This document shows positions 6,193 through 17,671 of a DNA stretch of 26,909 nucleotides, one piece after another. The DNA is from a virus (Duplodnaviria > Caudoviricetes), in the IMG/VR virus record IMGVR_UViG_3300020042_008729, positions 1 to 26,909 of that record. One strand, written 5' to 3'. The notes beneath the pieces were generated by a model. The model ran no database searches and was not told the DNA's origin. It saw nothing but the letters and a program-made list of their open reading frames with translations. Positions within the stretch are counted from its first letter, which is position 1; each line of letters begins with the position of its first letter. Both the position numbers and the translations under genes were made by a program.

Positions 6193-7779
6193 ATGGCAAC
6201 TTGGAAGAAAGTCATAGTCTCCGGATCAGCAGCCGAATTAAGTCAGTTAAATGTCGGAGCCAATCAACAAATAACACCAACACAAGCAACAACCTTCTTA
6301 ACAGGATCGTTTACTGGCTCGTTTACTGGTAATGGTACAGGTTTAACTGGAGTAACAGCAACAGCTGTATTTCCTACATCACAAACTACCCCACTACTAT
6401 CTACAACTAAGATATTCACAAACGATGGTTCTGGCAATACTTTTGTTGTTGCAGGTCAAGTAACAGCATCAACTTACGCAGGAGTATCTGGTGACATTAC
6501 TATCAACACAGCGGGTGTAGCTTCGATTGCAGCAAACTCTGTAGCGTTAGGAACTGATACAACTGGAGACTACGTTACGAACGTTACATCAGGTAATGGT
6601 CTTACGGGTGGTGCAACTGGAGAAGGTTCAACACCAACTCTAGCAGTAGGAGCTGGTACGCACATCACTGTAAACGCAGATGACGTAGCAGTTAACACAA
6701 CCACATTAACCCCAGCAATCTCTGGTTCGATATTCACCCAAGTAAGTGGTGACATTAGCATCACAGCTGGCGGTGTTGCAGCAATAGCTGCTAACTCAGT
6801 AGCTTTAGGAACAGACACGACTGGAGACTACGTATCCACTATCACTGCAGGTGCTGGTGTATTTACTACCGGTGCATCTTCAGGAGAAACAATTGCTCAT
6901 ACAGTATCGATCAACTCAGGGTCGATGTTACCATTCTACTCTGGATCAATTTTCAGTACAGTATCTGGTGACATTACTATCACTTCAGCAGGTGCAGCAG
7001 CAATTGGAACGGGAGTAATTGTTAATGCAGATGTTAATGCAGCTGCAGCAATAGCAGCTTCTAAGATCAGCTTCACAGGTACATCGTTTGTTTCTGCATC
7101 AACTTTAGCAGCAGGCTCAGGTCAAGGTTCAACCACCTTAACTACTAACGGTGTCAGCTCAGGTGATATTACAGCAACTGGATTAGGAACGGCAGGAACA
7201 CCAACATTTGCAGGTTTGACTATCACCAATGGTAACATTGCGATAAACAACACAACATCAACCGCTCTCACAACTACAGGAACAACTGCAGCAGTATTTA
7301 ACACCACTGCAACCACAGTAAACGCTTTCGGAGCAGCAACCACCATAAACATAGGAGCAGCAACTGGTACAACCACTATCAATAATGACACTCGAATCAA
7401 AGGTGCGTTATATGTAGATGGTCCAGTAACAGCAATTAGTTCATCCAACCTTTACATAGCTGACCAGTTCATCATATTAGCATCTGGCTCAGCAACTGCA
7501 GGAGATGGTGGTATTATCATAGACAGAGGATCAGACGCAGCTGGAAATATCGGATACGGATTTGATGCAACAACAGACCGTTGGGGATTCCAAAGTGGTA
7601 TGGCAGATGGCACCAATACAATCGTTCCAACAACAGCAAACGGAGTAAGCGGTTCATTTGTAACATACTTATTCACTGAAGCTGATCATGGAGCTACTAA
7701 ACCAATCACAGGAGAGTTTGCAGTAGTAGGAGCTCAGTATATGGACAATGCAGGAAACTTCTGGGTATACACAGCATAA
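6193..7779 (+). CDS. Fibre-like virion protein with internal repeats
   Basis: 528 aa rich in Thr/Ala/Gly/Ser; N-terminus MATWKKVIVSGS; 31-aa internal repeat; C-terminal DQFIILASGSATAGDGGIIIDRG...GFDATTDRWGF segment typical of phage fibre proteins. Confidence 0.7.
   Translation: MATWKKVIVSGSAAELSQLNVGANQQITPTQATTFLTGSFTGSFTGNGTGLTGVTATAVFPTSQTTPLLSTTKIFTNDGSGNTFVVAGQVTASTYAGVSGDITINTAGVASIAANSVALGTDTTGDYVTNVTSGNGLTGGATGEGSTPTLAVGAGTHITVNADDVAVNTTTLTPAISGSIFTQVSGDISITAGGVAAIAANSVALGTDTTGDYVSTITAGAGVFTTGASSGETIAHTVSINSGSMLPFYSGSIFSTVSGDITITSAGAAAIGTGVIVNADVNAAAAIAASKISFTGTSFVSASTLAAGSGQGSTTLTTNGVSSGDITATGLGTAGTPTFAGLTITNGNIAINNTTSTALTTTGTTAAVFNTTATTVNAFGAATTINIGAATGTTTINNDTRIKGALYVDGPVTAISSSNLYIADQFIILASGSATAGDGGIIIDRGSDAAGNIGYGFDATTDRWGFQSGMADGTNTIVPTTANGVSGSFVTYLFTEADHGATKPITGEFAVVGAQYMDNAGNFWVYTA
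6484..6985 (+). repeat. Intragenic repeat: two 93-nt copies (6484-6576, 6742-6834) and a partial third copy from 6961
   Basis: VSGDITINTAGVASIAANSVALGTDTTGDYV / VSGDISITAGGVAAIAANSVALGTDTTGDYV / VSGDITITSAGAAAI. Confidence 0.85.
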
Positions 7780-7799: not shown

Positions 7800-8015
7800 A
7801 TGAGTCTTATAAATAGAATTACAGGCAAACAGCCTATACAACAAACAACTCAAGTTTCTGATGATGCGACTAAACTCACACTTCAGGAACTTGAGTTCCT
7901 TTTAAACACACTAAAATCCACGTCAATCGTTGGAGATCAGGTGGAAATGTTTTATATTATGGTAATAAAGCTGCAGGAACAATACATGCAACAGCAGCAA
8001 GAAACCATTAAGTAA
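7800..8015 (+). CDS. Small helical protein, paralog of 8031..8276
   Basis: 71 aa; gapless alignment with the next ORF over 34 aa. Confidence 0.7.
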   Translation: MSLINRITGKQPIQQTTQVSDDATKLTLQELEFLLNTLKSTSIVGDQVEMFYIMVIKLQEQYMQQQQETIK

Positions 8016-8030
8016 TAAAACAAAACAGTT

Positions 8031-8276
8031 ATGGAATTATACTCAGTTGATCTAACAACAGCAGAGATACAACTAATGCGTCAAGCTTTAGACGTAATCA
8101 CTATTACCGGCAAAGACGCAAGATTTGTTGCAAATACTCAATTAAAGTTGGAGCACGAACTAAAGCAGATTGTAGAAATGCAACAGCAATTTGAGCTGCA
8201 AAAGCAAGCAGAGCTCCAACAAGCCATTCTGATAGAAGAAAAAAAAGCAAAAAAGCGAGAAGCTTCTAACGCATAA
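8031..8276 (+). CDS. Small helical / coiled-coil protein, paralog of 7800..8015
   Basis: 81 aa with a Gln/Glu/Lys-rich coiled-coil tail and basic C-terminus KKAKKR. Confidence 0.7.
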   Translation: MELYSVDLTTAEIQLMRQALDVITITGKDARFVANTQLKLEHELKQIVEMQQQFELQKQAELQQAILIEEKKAKKREASNA

Positions 8277-8289
8277 GCTAACCTAAGCA

Positions 8290-8297
8290 TATTTATT
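8290..8297 (+). promoter_or_regulatory. TATTTATT variant of the candidate late promoter
   Basis: One mismatch to TATTTATA; 10 nt upstream of the structured RNA element. Confidence 0.5.
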
Positions 8298-8307
8298 AAA
8301 AAGAATC

Positions 8308-8369
8308 TATTGTTGGCCGCAAGGAAGTAGGCGTATACACGGCATGAGTGTATGTATCTAACCACAATA
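8308..8369 (+). ncRNA. Candidate cis-regulatory structured RNA (three-way junction with possible pseudoknot to the start codon)
   Basis: Hand-folded. P1: 8308-8316 with 8362-8369, one bulge. P2: CC-GCAA-GG at 8317-8324. P3: 8328-8340 with 8348-8360, G.U pairs and one mismatch. Loop GGCAUG (8341-8346) is complementary to UAUGCC (8384-8389). Confidence 0.65.
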
Positions 8370-8384
8370 TAAAAGAAGTGTTGT

Positions 8385-10052
8385 ATGCCAAATTGGAAAA
8401 AAGTCGTCGTATCCGGATCGGATGCCGTATTAAGTTCTGTAACCTCCTCATTCACAGGATCATTAACTGGTGCTTTAATTGGGACAGCATCATGGGCTCA
8501 AAGTGCTTCAAGAGCAATATCAGCATCATATGCACCACCCTCTCCCACATTCCCATACATAGGTACTGCTACAATAAGTGGATCATTACTAGTAACTGGA
8601 TCTAGCTTTTTAGTCACATCCGACACCACTCAAATAAATGCATCGAATGAAGTGCAGATAGCGACCACTAGAGTCAGCATAGGTGACAACACAGGACCTC
8701 CCGAAAAGATATTTCTACGCTCAAATACAGGTAATGGTGGGTTGTTCTGGACATTAAATGATGAACAAATAGCCGTATATGCTGAGAATGATAGATATAA
8801 TTATGGGAACGGGAATATGTATGTCTCATCTTCTGACCAAAAAACATACTCACCTGCAGGATTCATAGGACCGCTTACAGGATCCGTATTTGGAACAGCA
8901 TCCTGGGCTACATCAGTAATAACATCTTCCGTCACTTCAAACGTAGACGTAAACGACGTACCAAATAGCAATACTACAAACTACTTAGCATTTTATCTAA
9001 ATGCCTCGGGATTCAGACCTTCAAGAATAGCATCTACTAAATTTGTAGTAAACCCAGCTACAGGATCAATGGGTATTAATAAATCTACTATAACAACAGG
9101 ATATAACTTAGATGTTAGTGGCTCAGTATTAGTCACAGGTAGTATAACAGCTTCATTAGGATTTTTTGGTACAGCATCCTTTGCTACAAGTGCTTCTCAA
9201 GCATTAACAGCTTCCCAAGCAACATCAGCATCATATGCTTTATCAGCTTCATTCGCACCATCATCTCCTGCATTCCCATATACAGGAAGTGCTATAATAT
9301 CAGGAAGTTTAGGAATAACGGGATCATTAATAGTATCTGGAACAAATGGTGGTATTGATACAAGCTTAAACAGCCCAGCATTACTTTCAGGCGATGGTAA
9401 TCAAGCTGTTGTATTTGGTACTAATAGAAAATGGTTAAATGATGCCAATAGCACTACAGTTGTAGATTGGGAAGTACAAAGTTTAAACGATAGTTTAGCA
9501 AATCCAAGTATAGATTGGACAAACAGAATACTTTACGAAGTAGGTGGCTATGAAGCTCTTAATTATTCTACCTCTGCGTCTGTAAGCAGTCAATTATATT
9601 ACAACAACGTAATCCCAGGCCAAGTCCAAAGACAACTAGCAAATACCCCAACACATGCAGGTCAAGTAATTCAAGCATCCATAGATGTAGGAGTATCAAA
9701 TTATGAGTTAGTAGCATTGGACACTGATGGAGTATGGAAACCTACCAAAGCTGCTGTTGGATATTACGCAGATAAGATGTTAGGAATTGCTGTAGATGCG
9801 GCTGGTGGGTATGTATTAATAGAGGGAGACATAGGGGTGAGTGATGATGCAAGTAAAGGAGCTTATGTAGTAGGAGCAGATTACGGATTACCAGTATATG
9901 TGTCAACATCAGATAATCAAATGACTACAACTGCTCCATCAGGCGCAGGCTCAATAGTCAGAATAGTAGGACACATCTACTATAACAGCACAACAGATGT
10001 CAATTGGTGGACAATGAAATTTAGGCCAAGTAATGATTGGTACATAATATAA
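8385..10052 (+). CDS. Fibre-like virion protein
   Basis: 555 aa; N-terminus MPNWKKVVVSGS homologous to that of 6193; ASxA heptad-like repeats; two FPYxGxAxISGSL modules; distinct C-terminal domain (LGIA...GLPVYVS...TTTAPSG...VRIVG). Confidence 0.72.
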   Translation: MPNWKKVVVSGSDAVLSSVTSSFTGSLTGALIGTASWAQSASRAISASYAPPSPTFPYIGTATISGSLLVTGSSFLVTSDTTQINASNEVQIATTRVSIGDNTGPPEKIFLRSNTGNGGLFWTLNDEQIAVYAENDRYNYGNGNMYVSSSDQKTYSPAGFIGPLTGSVFGTASWATSVITSSVTSNVDVNDVPNSNTTNYLAFYLNASGFRPSRIASTKFVVNPATGSMGINKSTITTGYNLDVSGSVLVTGSITASLGFFGTASFATSASQALTASQATSASYALSASFAPSSPAFPYTGSAIISGSLGITGSLIVSGTNGGIDTSLNSPALLSGDGNQAVVFGTNRKWLNDANSTTVVDWEVQSLNDSLANPSIDWTNRILYEVGGYEALNYSTSASVSSQLYYNNVIPGQVQRQLANTPTHAGQVIQASIDVGVSNYELVALDTDGVWKPTKAAVGYYADKMLGIAVDAAGGYVLIEGDIGVSDDASKGAYVVGADYGLPVYVSTSDNQMTTTAPSGAGSIVRIVGHIYYNSTTDVNWWTMKFRPSNDWYII

Positions 10053-13563: not shown

Positions 13564-15978
13564 ATGGCCGAAAAAATAGTTAGCCCAGGAGTCTTCACAA
13601 ACGAGAAAGACTTATCATTTTTACCAGCCGGTATTGCTGCCATAGGAGCAGCTATCGTTGGTCCTACCCTAAGAGGTCCTGCTTTCATACCAACTGTGGT
13701 AACAAACTTCAATGACTTTATTTCAAAGTTTGGAGGATTGAGCGAAGAGACATATGTTCCATATGCAGTAAAGAGCTACTTGAGAAATGCAAGCACTGTT
13801 ACAGTGGTTCGTATCCTACAAGAAGGTGGATACAATATCCCAACAGCATTTAGCTTAATCTTTACAACAGGGTCTACTACTCGTGTAGTAGGTGTTGCTA
13901 TTCCAAGCGCTAAAAACAGCACTAACGGAAGCAATGCAGTTGGATTAGGTTTATCAGCAATTACATCATCAGGTGGAACAAATGGATCAGGTAGCTATTC
14001 TGGATCATTTAAAATGGTATTCTCTGGATCTTCATTCACTCCATTTGCGGTATCAGCATCAACAGTTCCGTCAAGCAACATTAGCTTTGACAAGGTATTA
14101 GGTACTAACGTAAAGTCTACTCAAAACGCATACGCATACCTCTGGTTCCCAGACTACTTGACAACTTACTTAGGAAGCAGTGGAAGTATGGTATCTGCAT
14201 CATTTGCCAGTCCACTTAACCTTTCTGGCTCAGTTTTTGGAACTTACCGCCCAGCAAGAACGCCATATGTAACTTCTCAGTTAATAGACGGACAGAGTCC
14301 AAAGACATTATTCCGATTCTACAACCAAGCAGACGGAACAGATACAAACACACAATTTAAGATTAGTGTAATTAACCAAACACTACCAACATCAACATCA
14401 GTAGCAAACGTATACGGAACTTTCACAGTTCTTGTGCGTGACTTCAATGATACAGATCAACGTCCAATAGTATTGGAGTCTTACAATAACTTAACATTAG
14501 ATCCAGATTCAAGCGACTTTATTGCTCGTCGAATTGGAGATAGATACAACCAAGTTAGCACAGCTGATTATAGCGTTAAGGTATTAGGTGACTATCCAAA
14601 CGTAAGTAAGTACATTCGTGTAGACCTTGATAGTGATGTTAAGAACGGTGGTACCTCATTTGCATTGTTTCCAAAAGGATTCCAAGCAGTAATTGAGCCT
14701 TTTGCAGGACCATTCAACTTACCATCAGCATCTTTTGTTACTGAAGACCTTACAATCAACGGAGCTTTCAACACCAAAGCATATTACGGTTGGAATTTTA
14801 GCTCAAACGACAATGTAAACTACCTAAAGCCACTTCCAAGTGCATCTGTAGCAGGAGCAAACGTAAACTTCAACTTAGATAACTGCTTCTTCCACGCAAG
14901 TGGATCTGCAGTAGATAGCAATACAACTGGATACACCGGTGGTGCATCTGTATCAGGATCAACTTTAAGAGGTCTGGATGTATCTAACGTATTGAAGTTT
15001 ACCGTACCATTCCAAGATGGATTCGACGGAAATGACCCAGCACTACCAAAGTATGTTGGAGCAGACATTAGAAACACTAACACACAAGGACTTAACTGTC
15101 AAAATGCAAGTTCTGCAGGTAGCCAAGCATACTTCAAAGCTTTGAACATTATTCAAAACGCTGAACAGTATGACATGAACCTTTTAATAACTCCTGGTAT
15201 CACCATAGCTGATCACCCAAGTGTAGTAGCTAAAGCATTAGATGTTGTTGAAACAAGAGGAGATACTTTCTATATTGCTGACCCAGTAATACAGAACCAA
15301 TCACTTGCAACAGCAGTATCAGCAGCAGCAAACTCAGGAATTGATAGCTCATATGTTGGAACTTACTGGCCATGGGTTAAGATCATCGATACTGACAAGA
15401 ATAAGCCAGTATGGGTACCACCAAGTGTTGTATTACCAAACATATTTGCTTACAACGATAACGTAGCGTTTGAATGGTTTGCACCAGCAGGTCTGAATCG
15501 TGGAGGAATTACTGAGGCAGTAGACATTGAGACTAAATTAACTTTCTCTCAACGTGATAGCTTATACGAGAACAAGATTAACCCAATTGCAACATTCCCA
15601 GGTCAAGGTATCTGTGTATGGGGACAAAAGACATTACAAGTCAAGTCTTCTGCTTTGGATCGTATCAATGTACGTAGATTGTTAATCGCTATGAAGAAGT
15701 TCATCGCAAGCTCTACTCGCTACTTAGTATTCGAGAACAATACAACTGAAACTCGTCAAAGATTCTTAAACATTGTTAACCCTTACTTGGAAAGAGTAAA
15801 AGCTCGTCAAGGTCTATATGCCTTCCGTGTAGTAATGGACGAAACCAATAATACACCAGACGTAATCGACAGAAACCAAATGTACGGTCAAATATTCTTA
15901 CAACCAGCTAAGACTGCAGAGTTTATAGTACTTGACTTCAATATTTTACCAACTGGAGCATCGTTCGAAAACGCATAA
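13564..15978 (+). CDS. gp18: Contractile tail sheath protein, T4 gp18-like
   Basis: SPGVFTNEKDLS, YWPWV, WVPPS, WFAPAGLNRG, INPIATFPGQG.VWGQKTL, DRINVRRLLI, DETNNTPDVIDRN and QPAKTAEFI are canonical sheath motifs. Confidence 0.96.
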   Translation: MAEKIVSPGVFTNEKDLSFLPAGIAAIGAAIVGPTLRGPAFIPTVVTNFNDFISKFGGLSEETYVPYAVKSYLRNASTVTVVRILQEGGYNIPTAFSLIFTTGSTTRVVGVAIPSAKNSTNGSNAVGLGLSAITSSGGTNGSGSYSGSFKMVFSGSSFTPFAVSASTVPSSNISFDKVLGTNVKSTQNAYAYLWFPDYLTTYLGSSGSMVSASFASPLNLSGSVFGTYRPARTPYVTSQLIDGQSPKTLFRFYNQADGTDTNTQFKISVINQTLPTSTSVANVYGTFTVLVRDFNDTDQRPIVLESYNNLTLDPDSSDFIARRIGDRYNQVSTADYSVKVLGDYPNVSKYIRVDLDSDVKNGGTSFALFPKGFQAVIEPFAGPFNLPSASFVTEDLTINGAFNTKAYYGWNFSSNDNVNYLKPLPSASVAGANVNFNLDNCFFHASGSAVDSNTTGYTGGASVSGSTLRGLDVSNVLKFTVPFQDGFDGNDPALPKYVGADIRNTNTQGLNCQNASSAGSQAYFKALNIIQNAEQYDMNLLITPGITIADHPSVVAKALDVVETRGDTFYIADPVIQNQSLATAVSAAANSGIDSSYVGTYWPWVKIIDTDKNKPVWVPPSVVLPNIFAYNDNVAFEWFAPAGLNRGGITEAVDIETKLTFSQRDSLYENKINPIATFPGQGICVWGQKTLQVKSSALDRINVRRLLIAMKKFIASSTRYLVFENNTTETRQRFLNIVNPYLERVKARQGLYAFRVVMDETNNTPDVIDRNQMYGQIFLQPAKTAEFIVLDFNILPTGASFENA

Positions 15979-17447: not shown

Positions 17448-17631
17448 TTACAGGCCCATAATATACGATCAGATCTTTGACCTGATGTATTACGGAAAAA
17501 TGGGATTCACCTACACAGAGCTATATCATATGCCTGTGTTTCAAAGGAGATACTATTATACAAAGCTTACTGATTACCTCAAGAGACAACATGAGGCAGA
17601 GAAAGCTGCGATGAACAAAGCTAAAAGATAA
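17428..17631 (+). CDS. Un-annotated ORF in the +1/-2 frame, probable frameshift extension of the chaperone (gp51-like); first ATG at 17485
   Basis: FFGLGSDYRPIIYDQIFDLMYYGKMGFTYTELYHMPVFQRRYYYTKLTDYLKRQHEAEKAAMNKAKR*. It fills the gap to a terminator, and the TELYHMP...R pattern resembles short gp51-like or GT-type chaperone tails. Confidence 0.7.
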   Translation, partial: FFGLGSDYRPIIYDQIFDLMYYGKMGFTYTELYHMPVFQRRYYYTKLTDYLKRQHEAEKAAMNKAKR

Positions 17632-17657
17632 GCCAGGTAACACTGGCTTTTCGTTTT
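17631..17657 (+). terminator. Rho-independent terminator
   Basis: AGCCAG-GTAACA-CTGGCT followed by TTTCGTTTT; begins at the stop codon of the 17428..17631 ORF. Confidence 0.7.
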
Positions 17658-17663
17658 AATTGA

Positions 17664-17671
17664 TATTTATA
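17664..17671 (+). promoter_or_regulatory. TATTTATA motif, candidate late promoter
   Basis: After the terminator, 12 nt before ATG 17684. Confidence 0.6.

Follow-up and report, generated by a model that had tools for sequence, protein, structure and literature searches.

Several classes of leader RNA are known that act at the start of translation. Pseudoknotted translational operators, such as the Escherichia coli rpsO/S15 operator and the leader of phage T4 gene 32, are one such class, and SAM-II and preQ1-II are translational riboswitches that hold the ribosome-binding site inside P1 or a pseudoknot. To our knowledge, very few conserved cis-regulatory RNAs for phage structural genes are known. 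Here, we analyzed a 62-base three-stem RNA at the front of the message of a fiber-like gene in the virus record IMGVR_UViG_3300020042_008729 (Duplodnaviria; Caudoviricetes) of IMG/VR. The entire record, 26,909 nucleotides (nt), was analyzed and is called the window; this 26.9-kb fragment is estimated to represent ~15% of the genome. The RNA likely limits or gates the amount of fiber. The known family nearest to it is the glutamine-I riboswitch (glnA RNA, RF01739), which it resembles in architecture, and glutamine riboswitches in marine T4-like phages are reported in passages of PMC9004378.

A three-way junction in the leader of a fiber-like gene

The original prediction, made from the letters of the window alone, had proposed that the 5' leader of the fiber-like gene forms a structured RNA on the plus strand, with three helices around a junction and one hairpin loop able to pair with the start codon. 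Each helix, loop, and box that it had placed proved correct base for base. The parts of the leader, given with the basis of each assignment (MFE, minimum free energy), are as follows:

8290..8297, plus strand: promoter-like box TATTTATT (family consensus TATTTAT), 10 nt before P1; putative promoter
8308..8316, plus strand: P1 5' strand UAUUGU(U)GG with U8314 bulged (MFE fold)
8317..8324, plus strand: P2 hairpin CC-GCAA-GG (MFE fold; the hairpin is kept in relatives)
8325..8327, plus strand: junction strand AAG, 100% conserved in 76 aligned sequences
8328..8340, plus strand: P3 5' strand UAGG-c-GUAUACAC with C8332 bulged (MFE fold, covariation)
8341..8347, plus strand: P3 loop GGCAUGA (mostly GGCAUAA in relatives), constant on a variable stem and complementary to UAUGCC
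8348..8360, plus strand: P3 3' strand GUGUAUGU-a-UCUA with A8356 bulged (MFE fold, covariation)
8361, plus strand: unpaired junction A, 100% conserved
8362..8369, plus strand: P1 3' strand CCACAAUA (MFE fold, covariation)
8370..8383, plus strand: A/U-rich spacer up to the start codon (sequence)
8384..8389, plus strand: UAUGCC, spanning base -1 through the second base of the Pro codon, start codon included; predicted to pair with the P3 loop
8385..10052, plus strand: fiber-like gene of 555 amino acids (aa), starting MPNWKKVVVSGS (translation)

The proposed junction is the exact MFE fold of positions 8300-8375, at -13.5 kcal/mol. The motifs that define the junction in the family, GG/CC, GGAAGU(A/G)G(G/A)C, and GUA(A/U/G)C(C/U)AACC, are present at 8315-8333 and 8353-8363. 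The AACC of the element ends at 8363, and the ATG of the fiber gene is at 8385. The gap that holds the element had been called long and GC rich for its module, and this description stands: at 108 nt it is the longest in its part of the window, exceeded only by 17448-17659, and the GC content of the element core is 0.435 versus 0.11-0.33 in most gaps longer than 5 nt (the exceptions are 2153-2164 with 0.42 and 17448-17659 with 0.38). The 10-nt distance from the box at 8290-8297 was likewise as predicted. No intrinsic terminator was recognized in the leader, since UAAAAGAAGUGUUGUAUG comes after P1 and no run of U follows P1 on its 3' side, which agrees with the earlier view that the element does not end transcription. 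Two minus-strand open reading frames (ORFs), 8138-8455 and 8296-8451, overlap the element.

Distribution of the element

With the 555-aa protein as query, 49 viral loci were recovered, most of which matched over the first 20-80 residues alone. In nine of those loci the 62-nt core is 90-97% identical, though their fiber proteins match at the N termini only. A covariance model (CM), R1, was built from eight sequences and gave 41 matches over 50 sources, directly 5' of an ATGCC start, ten of them at 84-97 bits and 31 at 16-33 bits. Scanning IMG/VR with a 15-mer yielded 120 loci of an estimated ~230, with 77 true matches scoring 65-97 bits. A degenerate junction pattern yielded another 120 loci of an estimated ~590, and 114 of these have ATGCC at most 60 nt downstream. 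The 242 instances that were parsed, from IMG/VR, three contigs of metagenome-assembled genomes (MAGs), and the cultured Flavobacterium phage immuto, correspond to 187 distinct sequences, 180 of them with an ATGCC start. ATGCC lies within 60 nt in 235 of the 242. The element ends 12-33 nt 5' of the ATGCC start of MPxWKK fiber-like genes, and the window fits this pattern. By extrapolation, about 700 stored IMG/VR stretches carry the element, and these counts indicate a family that is widespread in hundreds of related aquatic phages.

Both pattern scans enforce junction conservation by construction, and for this reason the sample gathered through the protein matters. All 27 distinct MPxWK starts in that sample carry the element, 26 with both junction motifs exact and the remaining one differing by 1 nt.

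In 596 Gb of prokaryotic genomes, the pattern scan gave 89 matches, approximately the chance expectation, and three of these pass the model. The three are contigs of MAGs labeled Flavobacteriales, Pelagibacter, and Bifidobacterium, each with the element 5' of an MPxWKK gene; as all of them stem from MAGs, they point to a host only weakly. Among cultured phages, the DNA of the window itself found neither a near nor a distant match. A query with a type-C element (one of the three subtypes described below) found phage immuto among cultured phages. In immuto, whose host is Flavobacterium sp. LMO8, the element lies at 137889-137948, after a AGATATTTATAT box and before a fiber-like gene, and the homologue of the 555-aa protein is annotated as "putative tail fiber-like protein". 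Five phage genomes were searched as a whole, namely, four IMG/VR records that are 94-100% complete and immuto. A single copy was found in four of the five; the fifth, G001, had no match at E ≤ 1 in the whole-genome search, yet it scored 22.9 bits in the search with model R1.

Covariation and the invariant junction

The pairing of P1 was counted by anchor parsing of the 187 distinct instances, independently of any model. Pairs 1 to 5 are paired in 91-99% of the instances, each with three to five standard (Watson-Crick or G.U) pair types that alternate as UA/UG/AU/CG, AU/GC/UA, and similar sets. When the partner is slid by one position, pairing of the first two P1 pairs falls to 1-6%. We give this count because an alignment made with a CM leans towards its model. 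The model-fitted alignment contains 76 sequences from clusters below 90% identity, and 92.2% of its cells are paired, compared with 33-44% in slid controls. Thirteen of the 22 pairs change on both sides (7 of 8 in P1 and 6 of 12 in P3), and the two-sided changes in P3 include UAG/CUA to UGG/CCA. Doubly changed cells number 134 versus 35 expected, and none of 500 shuffles reaches any of the covariation measures. At three pairs, U.G and G.U combinations (35 UG, 18 GU, and 17 UG) fit the plus strand only. Covariation was the check by which the original prediction had proposed to judge the fold, and both the anchor table and the alignment provide it; its remark that the G.U pairs make sense on the plus strand alone is borne out by the family counts.

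Conservation is strongest in the junction. The unpaired AAG, the single A after P3, GG/CC, and AACC are 99-100% conserved, and AAG is also kept in 26 of the 27 cases gathered through the protein, independently of the RNA pattern. The hairpins around the junction vary. P2 differs in length among relatives and is always a hairpin, with GAAA, GUAA, or GCAA loops, with extra pairs, or with stems of 8-10 bp carrying (G)UGGC(A). P3 ranges from hairpins of 3-6 bp with arbitrary loops up to the 12-bp arm of the window.

Two alternative pairings were considered and rejected. For an "anti-P1" hairpin of ACAAUAU with GUGUUGU before the AUG, pairing across the family equals that of a partner-swapped control in all subtypes. 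In the UUGGC:GCCAA pairing, which appears in the MFE fold of a longer context, the bulge base is A in 43 cases and the partner base is never U.

Three subtypes and complementarity to the start codon

The distinct instances fall into three subtypes:

Subtype A (that of the window), 64 distinct sequences in 14 clusters below 90% identity: long P3 with the loop GGCAU(A/G/U)A (GGUAUAA in one), complementary to UAUGCC at -1 to +4
Subtype B, 39 distinct sequences in 7 clusters below 90% identity: no box (0/39), located right after the stop of the small gene upstream; GGAG present in 39/39 and overlapped by the P1 3' strand in 35 of these; long P2 with the invariant loop (G)UGGC(A), complementary to UGCCA at +1 to +5
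Subtype C, 84 distinct sequences (two of them probably chance matches) in 58 clusters below 90% identity: GNRA-type P2, short P3, and loops without complementarity

Subtype C is the most diverse. In subtype A, 19-27 nt separate AACC from the ATG (median, 21-22 nt), and the medians of the other subtypes are 15-17 nt; the spacer has ~6 nt more where it would have to span the way to the distal P3 loop. Two hybrids, L302 (183-250) and L327, combine a UGGG/ACCA junction variant with a long P3 and a GGCAUAA loop, and therefore the start-complementary arm is found on both junction backgrounds.

In the window, the duplex of the P3 loop with the start region comprises 6 bp, including one G.U, with a predicted energy of -6.3 kcal/mol. 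A P3 loop that complements at least 5 bases of -1 to +4 occurs in 63 of the 180 distinct instances with an ATGCC start, and the start target range -1 to +4 is used in 52. The P2 loop (G)UGGC(A) is complementary to +1 to +5 in 42 of the 180. If at least 4 bases in either P2 or P3 are required, a complementary loop is found in 111 of the 180, and none has both. The two start-complementary loops are invariant while their own stems vary, and their complementarities extend in opposite directions from a common GGCA/UGCC core. Together with the longer spacer of subtype A, these patterns are reasonable evidence, though not of covariation grade, that start-site occlusion may be real in subtypes A and B. 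A U at -1 is enriched among distinct sequences of subtype A (59/63) compared with the noncomplementary subtype (47/78; p = 3e-6). A locus with a GUG start and a CAC loop (L329) was considered as a compensatory change and rejected, since CAC loops also accompany AUG starts.

The original prediction had further supposed a host that does not use Shine-Dalgarno (SD) sequences. This premise applies in part only: an SD-like AGGA or GGAG is present in the spacer of 20 of 63 subtype A sequences, and subtype B always carries such a motif.

Comparison with known RNA families

Like the rpsO/S15 and T4 gene 32 operators, the leader has a hairpin loop that is predicted to pair with the initiation region of its own mRNA, and it is dedicated to one gene. 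It differs from them in being a three-way junction with an invariant core, in having the start codon and codon 2, not the SD sequence, as its predicted target, and in showing the complementarity in some lineages only. A likeness to SAM-II and preQ1-II is seen in subtype B, where the P1 3' strand overlaps the SD-like GGAG in 35 of 39 sequences, whereas the element has no Rfam match and the subtype of the window has no SD sequence inside P1.

A comparison with Rfam 15 gave no match at the gathering score in the window, and 8 loci that represent every subtype gave none at E ≤ 1; the negatives include c-di-GMP-II, GP20-a/b, and the self-cleaving ribozymes. The original prediction had likewise recognized no known family. 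A hammerhead-type junction was rejected on the basis of the hammerhead core and the lack of an Rfam match. A full-text literature search, supplements excluded, found no paper describing the motif, and in the portions of PMC2864571 that we draw on, the phage-associated motifs named are manA, wcaG, and glnA only.

The glutamine-I riboswitch shares several features with the element. It is ~55-60 nt long and has the same order of stems, P1, a tetraloop-capped P2, and P3. The 10-mer GGAAGUAGGC that follows P2 in subtype A equals the Rfam consensus GGAAGUAgGc. Both RNAs adjoin a start codon, and both types occur in aquatic T4-like phages. As a positive control we used Prochlorococcus phage P-SSM2, in which positions 245155-245206 (L383 1501-1552) are a genuine glutamine-I riboswitch with 35.1 bits, the gathering cutoff of RF01739 being 35 bits. 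The P-SSM2 riboswitch also scores 26.4 bits for glutamine-II. With the same models, RF01739 and RF01704, no match at E ≤ 1 was obtained in 8 representative loci, and RF01739 alone gave nothing at E ≤ 1 in 5 whole phage genomes carrying the element. In the other direction, the CM of the element gives the P-SSM2 riboswitch just 7.3 bits (E = 1.2).

The differences lie in the parts that define the riboswitch. Its junction is a loop E, with CGGAAGUA after P2 opposite GAAG after P3; the element has a single A (8361) after P3 instead of GAAG, and hence loop E cannot form. The CGG that precedes AAGUA in the riboswitch is absent from the element, where AAGU comes directly after P2. The riboswitch P1, CGUUC/GAACG, is conserved (constructs are described in PMC5393176), and glutamine is reported in PMC6698751 to contact C:G and G:C pairs of P1, whereas the P1 of the element, UAUUGU/ACAAUA in the window, is variable and compensated. 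Finally, the riboswitch is tied to nitrogen metabolism (as stated in parts of PMC2864571), while the element is tied to a structural gene. With no CM match in either direction and with loop E, CGG, and the conserved P1 missing, membership of the element in the glutamine-I class was rejected. The element may still descend distantly from that riboswitch.

Promoter-like boxes and neighboring genes

The window comes from a myovirus of the T4 superfamily, with the major head protein gene at 129-1760 and the sheath gene at 13564-15978, followed by tube and baseplate genes. The head protein shares 54% identity with its counterpart in Flavobacterium phage vB_FspM_immuto and 52.5% with its counterpart in Microcystis phage Mel-JY01. 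Between head and neck genes lies a gene for a PhoH-like ATPase at 2165-2836 (PHROG 170; E = 7e-63).

The short box TATTTATA occurs seven times on the plus strand of the window, six times 22-33 nt before a gene start:

1819, 2842, 6162, 13196, 13531, 15985, and 17664, plus strand: TATTTATA boxes, six of them before starts of structural genes; that at 17664 overlaps an ORF with a TTG start at 17660

On both strands together there are 9 matches versus 2.6 expected, and none of 100 shuffles reaches 9. TATTTATA is probably the late promoter motif of this phage group. Read on the opposite strand, it equals the T4 late box TATAAATA, but here it lies on the coding strand. One box adjoins the longest intergenic gap of the window, 17448-17659 (212 nt; GC content, 0.38), which gave no Rfam match. 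At the fiber gene, the distance from box to ATG is 88 nt, and the surplus length is the RNA element. Among relatives, a TATTTAT box is found ahead of 62 of 63 elements of type A and 65 of 78 of type C, and in these two subtypes the element begins 4-12 nt past the box. The box ends 12-21 nt ahead of the end of the P1 5' strand, except in six type-C elements, where this distance is 23-49 nt.

The interval between neck and tail genes contains two fiber-like genes with related N termini, 6193-7779 (starting MATWKKVIVSGS) and 8385-10052 (starting MPNWKKVVVSGS). The former has the promoter-like box and a gap of merely 47 nt and lacks the RNA element; the leader is therefore specific to the MPNWKK gene. 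The 555-aa protein has no match in Pfam or PHROG, and the protein atlas gave weak leads only. Two small genes lie between the fiber-like genes:

7800..8015, plus strand: 71-aa paralogue of the 81-aa protein, located, like the 81-aa ORF, between the two fiber-like genes
8031..8276, plus strand: small helical protein of 81 aa, directly upstream of the RNA element, with homologues in relatives

The two paralogues share the core motif E-I/L-x-x-L ... G-x-D-A ... K-L. A helical protein of 48-101 aa is encoded immediately 5' of the element in 41 of the 42 loci that are sufficiently long, in all three subtypes. The AlphaFold model of the 81-aa protein is a helix-turn-long-helix with a predicted local distance difference test (pLDDT) score of 87, and the protein has no match in PDB sequences, PHROG, or Foldseek. 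It is a candidate partner of the fiber or of the RNA.

Proposed mechanism and alternatives

Our preferred reading, to which we assign a probability of roughly 45%, is that this widespread, covariation-supported three-way-junction leader holds down or gates translation of the fiber through pairing of the P3 loop with the start codon. Judging from the TATTTAT box, transcription would start ~5 nt before P1, and the junction would form the 5' end of the late mRNA. Once folded, the long P3 arm would bring its loop to the start codon over a tether of 14 nt, and the pseudoknot of 5-6 bp so formed would block access of the 30S subunit to the AUG. The invariant junction (GG/CC, AAGU, A, and AACC) is predicted to be the docking site of an effector that would set the stability of the closed form, because it is near-invariant even in relatives without loop complementarity. 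As to the effector, we tentatively favor a phage protein; a small ligand is a more doubtful candidate, and it is just as doubtful that the junction acts with no effector at all.

Several observations weigh against this proposal. The single-sequence fold is no better than chance (z = -0.50; 58 of 200 shuffles fold equally well), the minus strand folds nearly as well (-11.9 kcal/mol; z = -0.60), and the MFE structure of 8303-8410 (-19.5 kcal/mol) is a different one, in which P3 is kept and P1 and P2 are replaced. We judge the element to be real in spite of a fold at chance level because comparison with relatives shows conservation and covariation. The pseudoknot itself has no covariation, as its two strands hardly vary: coding fixes AUGCC, and GGCAU is constant. 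At the sole free pair, between loop position 6 and base -1, the type-A rows contain 57 Watson-Crick pairs, 2 G.U pairs, 8 mismatches, and no double change, and among clusters below 90% identity the excess of U at -1 falls short of significance (12/14 versus 32/53; p = 0.11). A complementary loop is lacking in 69 of the 180 distinct instances and in 58 of 79 clusters below 90% identity, and loop occlusion therefore cannot be the common mechanism of the family. The pseudoknot of the original prediction is thus retained for close relatives of the window, in which the complementarity is kept (subtype A), and given up as a family-wide feature. Its further reading of the leader as a switch or thermometer that sets fiber stoichiometry or switches fiber type is conjectural. 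The comparison indicates that start-codon occlusion is lineage-specific wiring upon a conserved core and that the invariant junction is the common denominator of the family.

Alternatively, the phage may encode a protein that binds the junction and stabilizes the closed leader, as in autogenous control, with the conserved N terminus of the fiber, the small upstream helical protein, or a dedicated repressor as candidates. RNA, MPxWKK N terminus, and small upstream gene are strictly co-conserved (27/27 starts and 41/42 loci), and the element is a single-copy one tied to one gene, an arrangement also seen in ribosomal-protein leaders and in the T4 operators of gene 32, gene 43, and RegA. Simple cis linkage explains the co-conservation equally well, however, and no protein with a recognizable RNA-binding fold was found, the small protein being a helical hairpin without a match; we regard such an operator as rather doubtful. 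We hold it unlikely, and slightly more so, that the leader is an orphan riboswitch, in which the junction would be a small-molecule aptamer, possibly descended from glutamine-I, P1 at the ribosome-binding region would be the expression platform, and the complementary loops would be lineage-specific reinforcement. Conservation centered on an unpaired junction, with length and loop of P2 and P3 free, is the usual pattern of aptamers, GGAAGUAGGC has the glutamine-I consensus at the same place after a tetraloop-capped P2, and the P1 of one subtype holds part of GGAG. Glutamine riboswitches are also described in marine T4-like phages (passages of PMC9004378), and our own search located one in P-SSM2. 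All this has to be set against the lack of RF01739 and RF01704 matches, the 7.3 bits of the P-SSM2 riboswitch, the absence of the GAAG strand of loop E and of CGG before AAGUA, the variable P1 at the site where glutamine is contacted (as given in PMC6698751), and the tie to a single structural gene without metabolic logic. In a bolder version, to which we give little credence, the junction would be an orphan aptamer of the glutamine riboswitch lineage by which aquatic T4-like phages of several host phyla couple one host-recognition fiber to a host metabolite, the P2 or the P3 loop having independently become an "anti-start-codon" that reads the bound state.

A passive role is very improbable. 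A structure at the 5' terminus could counter 5'-end-dependent decay or offer a ribosome standby site, with the loop/AUG complementarity incidental, and its position 4-12 nt after the box in two subtypes, predicted to be the extreme 5' end of the transcript, would suit this, as would the absence of complementarity from most clusters. But a stabilizer needs neither an invariant junction nor a fixed three-way geometry, the subtype B element is internal, directly past the upstream stop codon and without a box (0/39), and two different hairpins bear invariant loops against the same start region. Least credible of all is that the RNA has no function and that the region is a fold arisen by chance, a repeat or recombination site at the DNA level bordering exchangeable fiber cassettes, or antisense coding sequence. 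Its single-sequence z of -0.5, the overlapping minus-strand ORFs, and the position of the element at the border of the conserved N-terminal block of otherwise divergent fiber genes would fit, while the compensatory changes, the G.U pairs specific to the plus strand, and a P1 that keeps its pairing rather than its sequence do not. Changes in hairpin length are not multiples of three, which further disfavors coding.

Implications

The comparison of relatives indicates that the element represents a real, abundant, and uncatalogued family of cis-acting RNAs, for which we infer a role as a translational gate. Phages that use SD-type initiation and phages that do not both carry the element. Its near-invariant junction implies a specific partner, and the gene downstream looks like a host-recognition fiber. 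As the element is present in a cultured pair, Flavobacterium phage immuto and Flavobacterium sp. LMO8, the mechanism is open to direct experiment. A metabolite as partner would make the family a new class of riboswitch with a structural gene as its output, and a protein as partner would make it a new family of phage translational operators.

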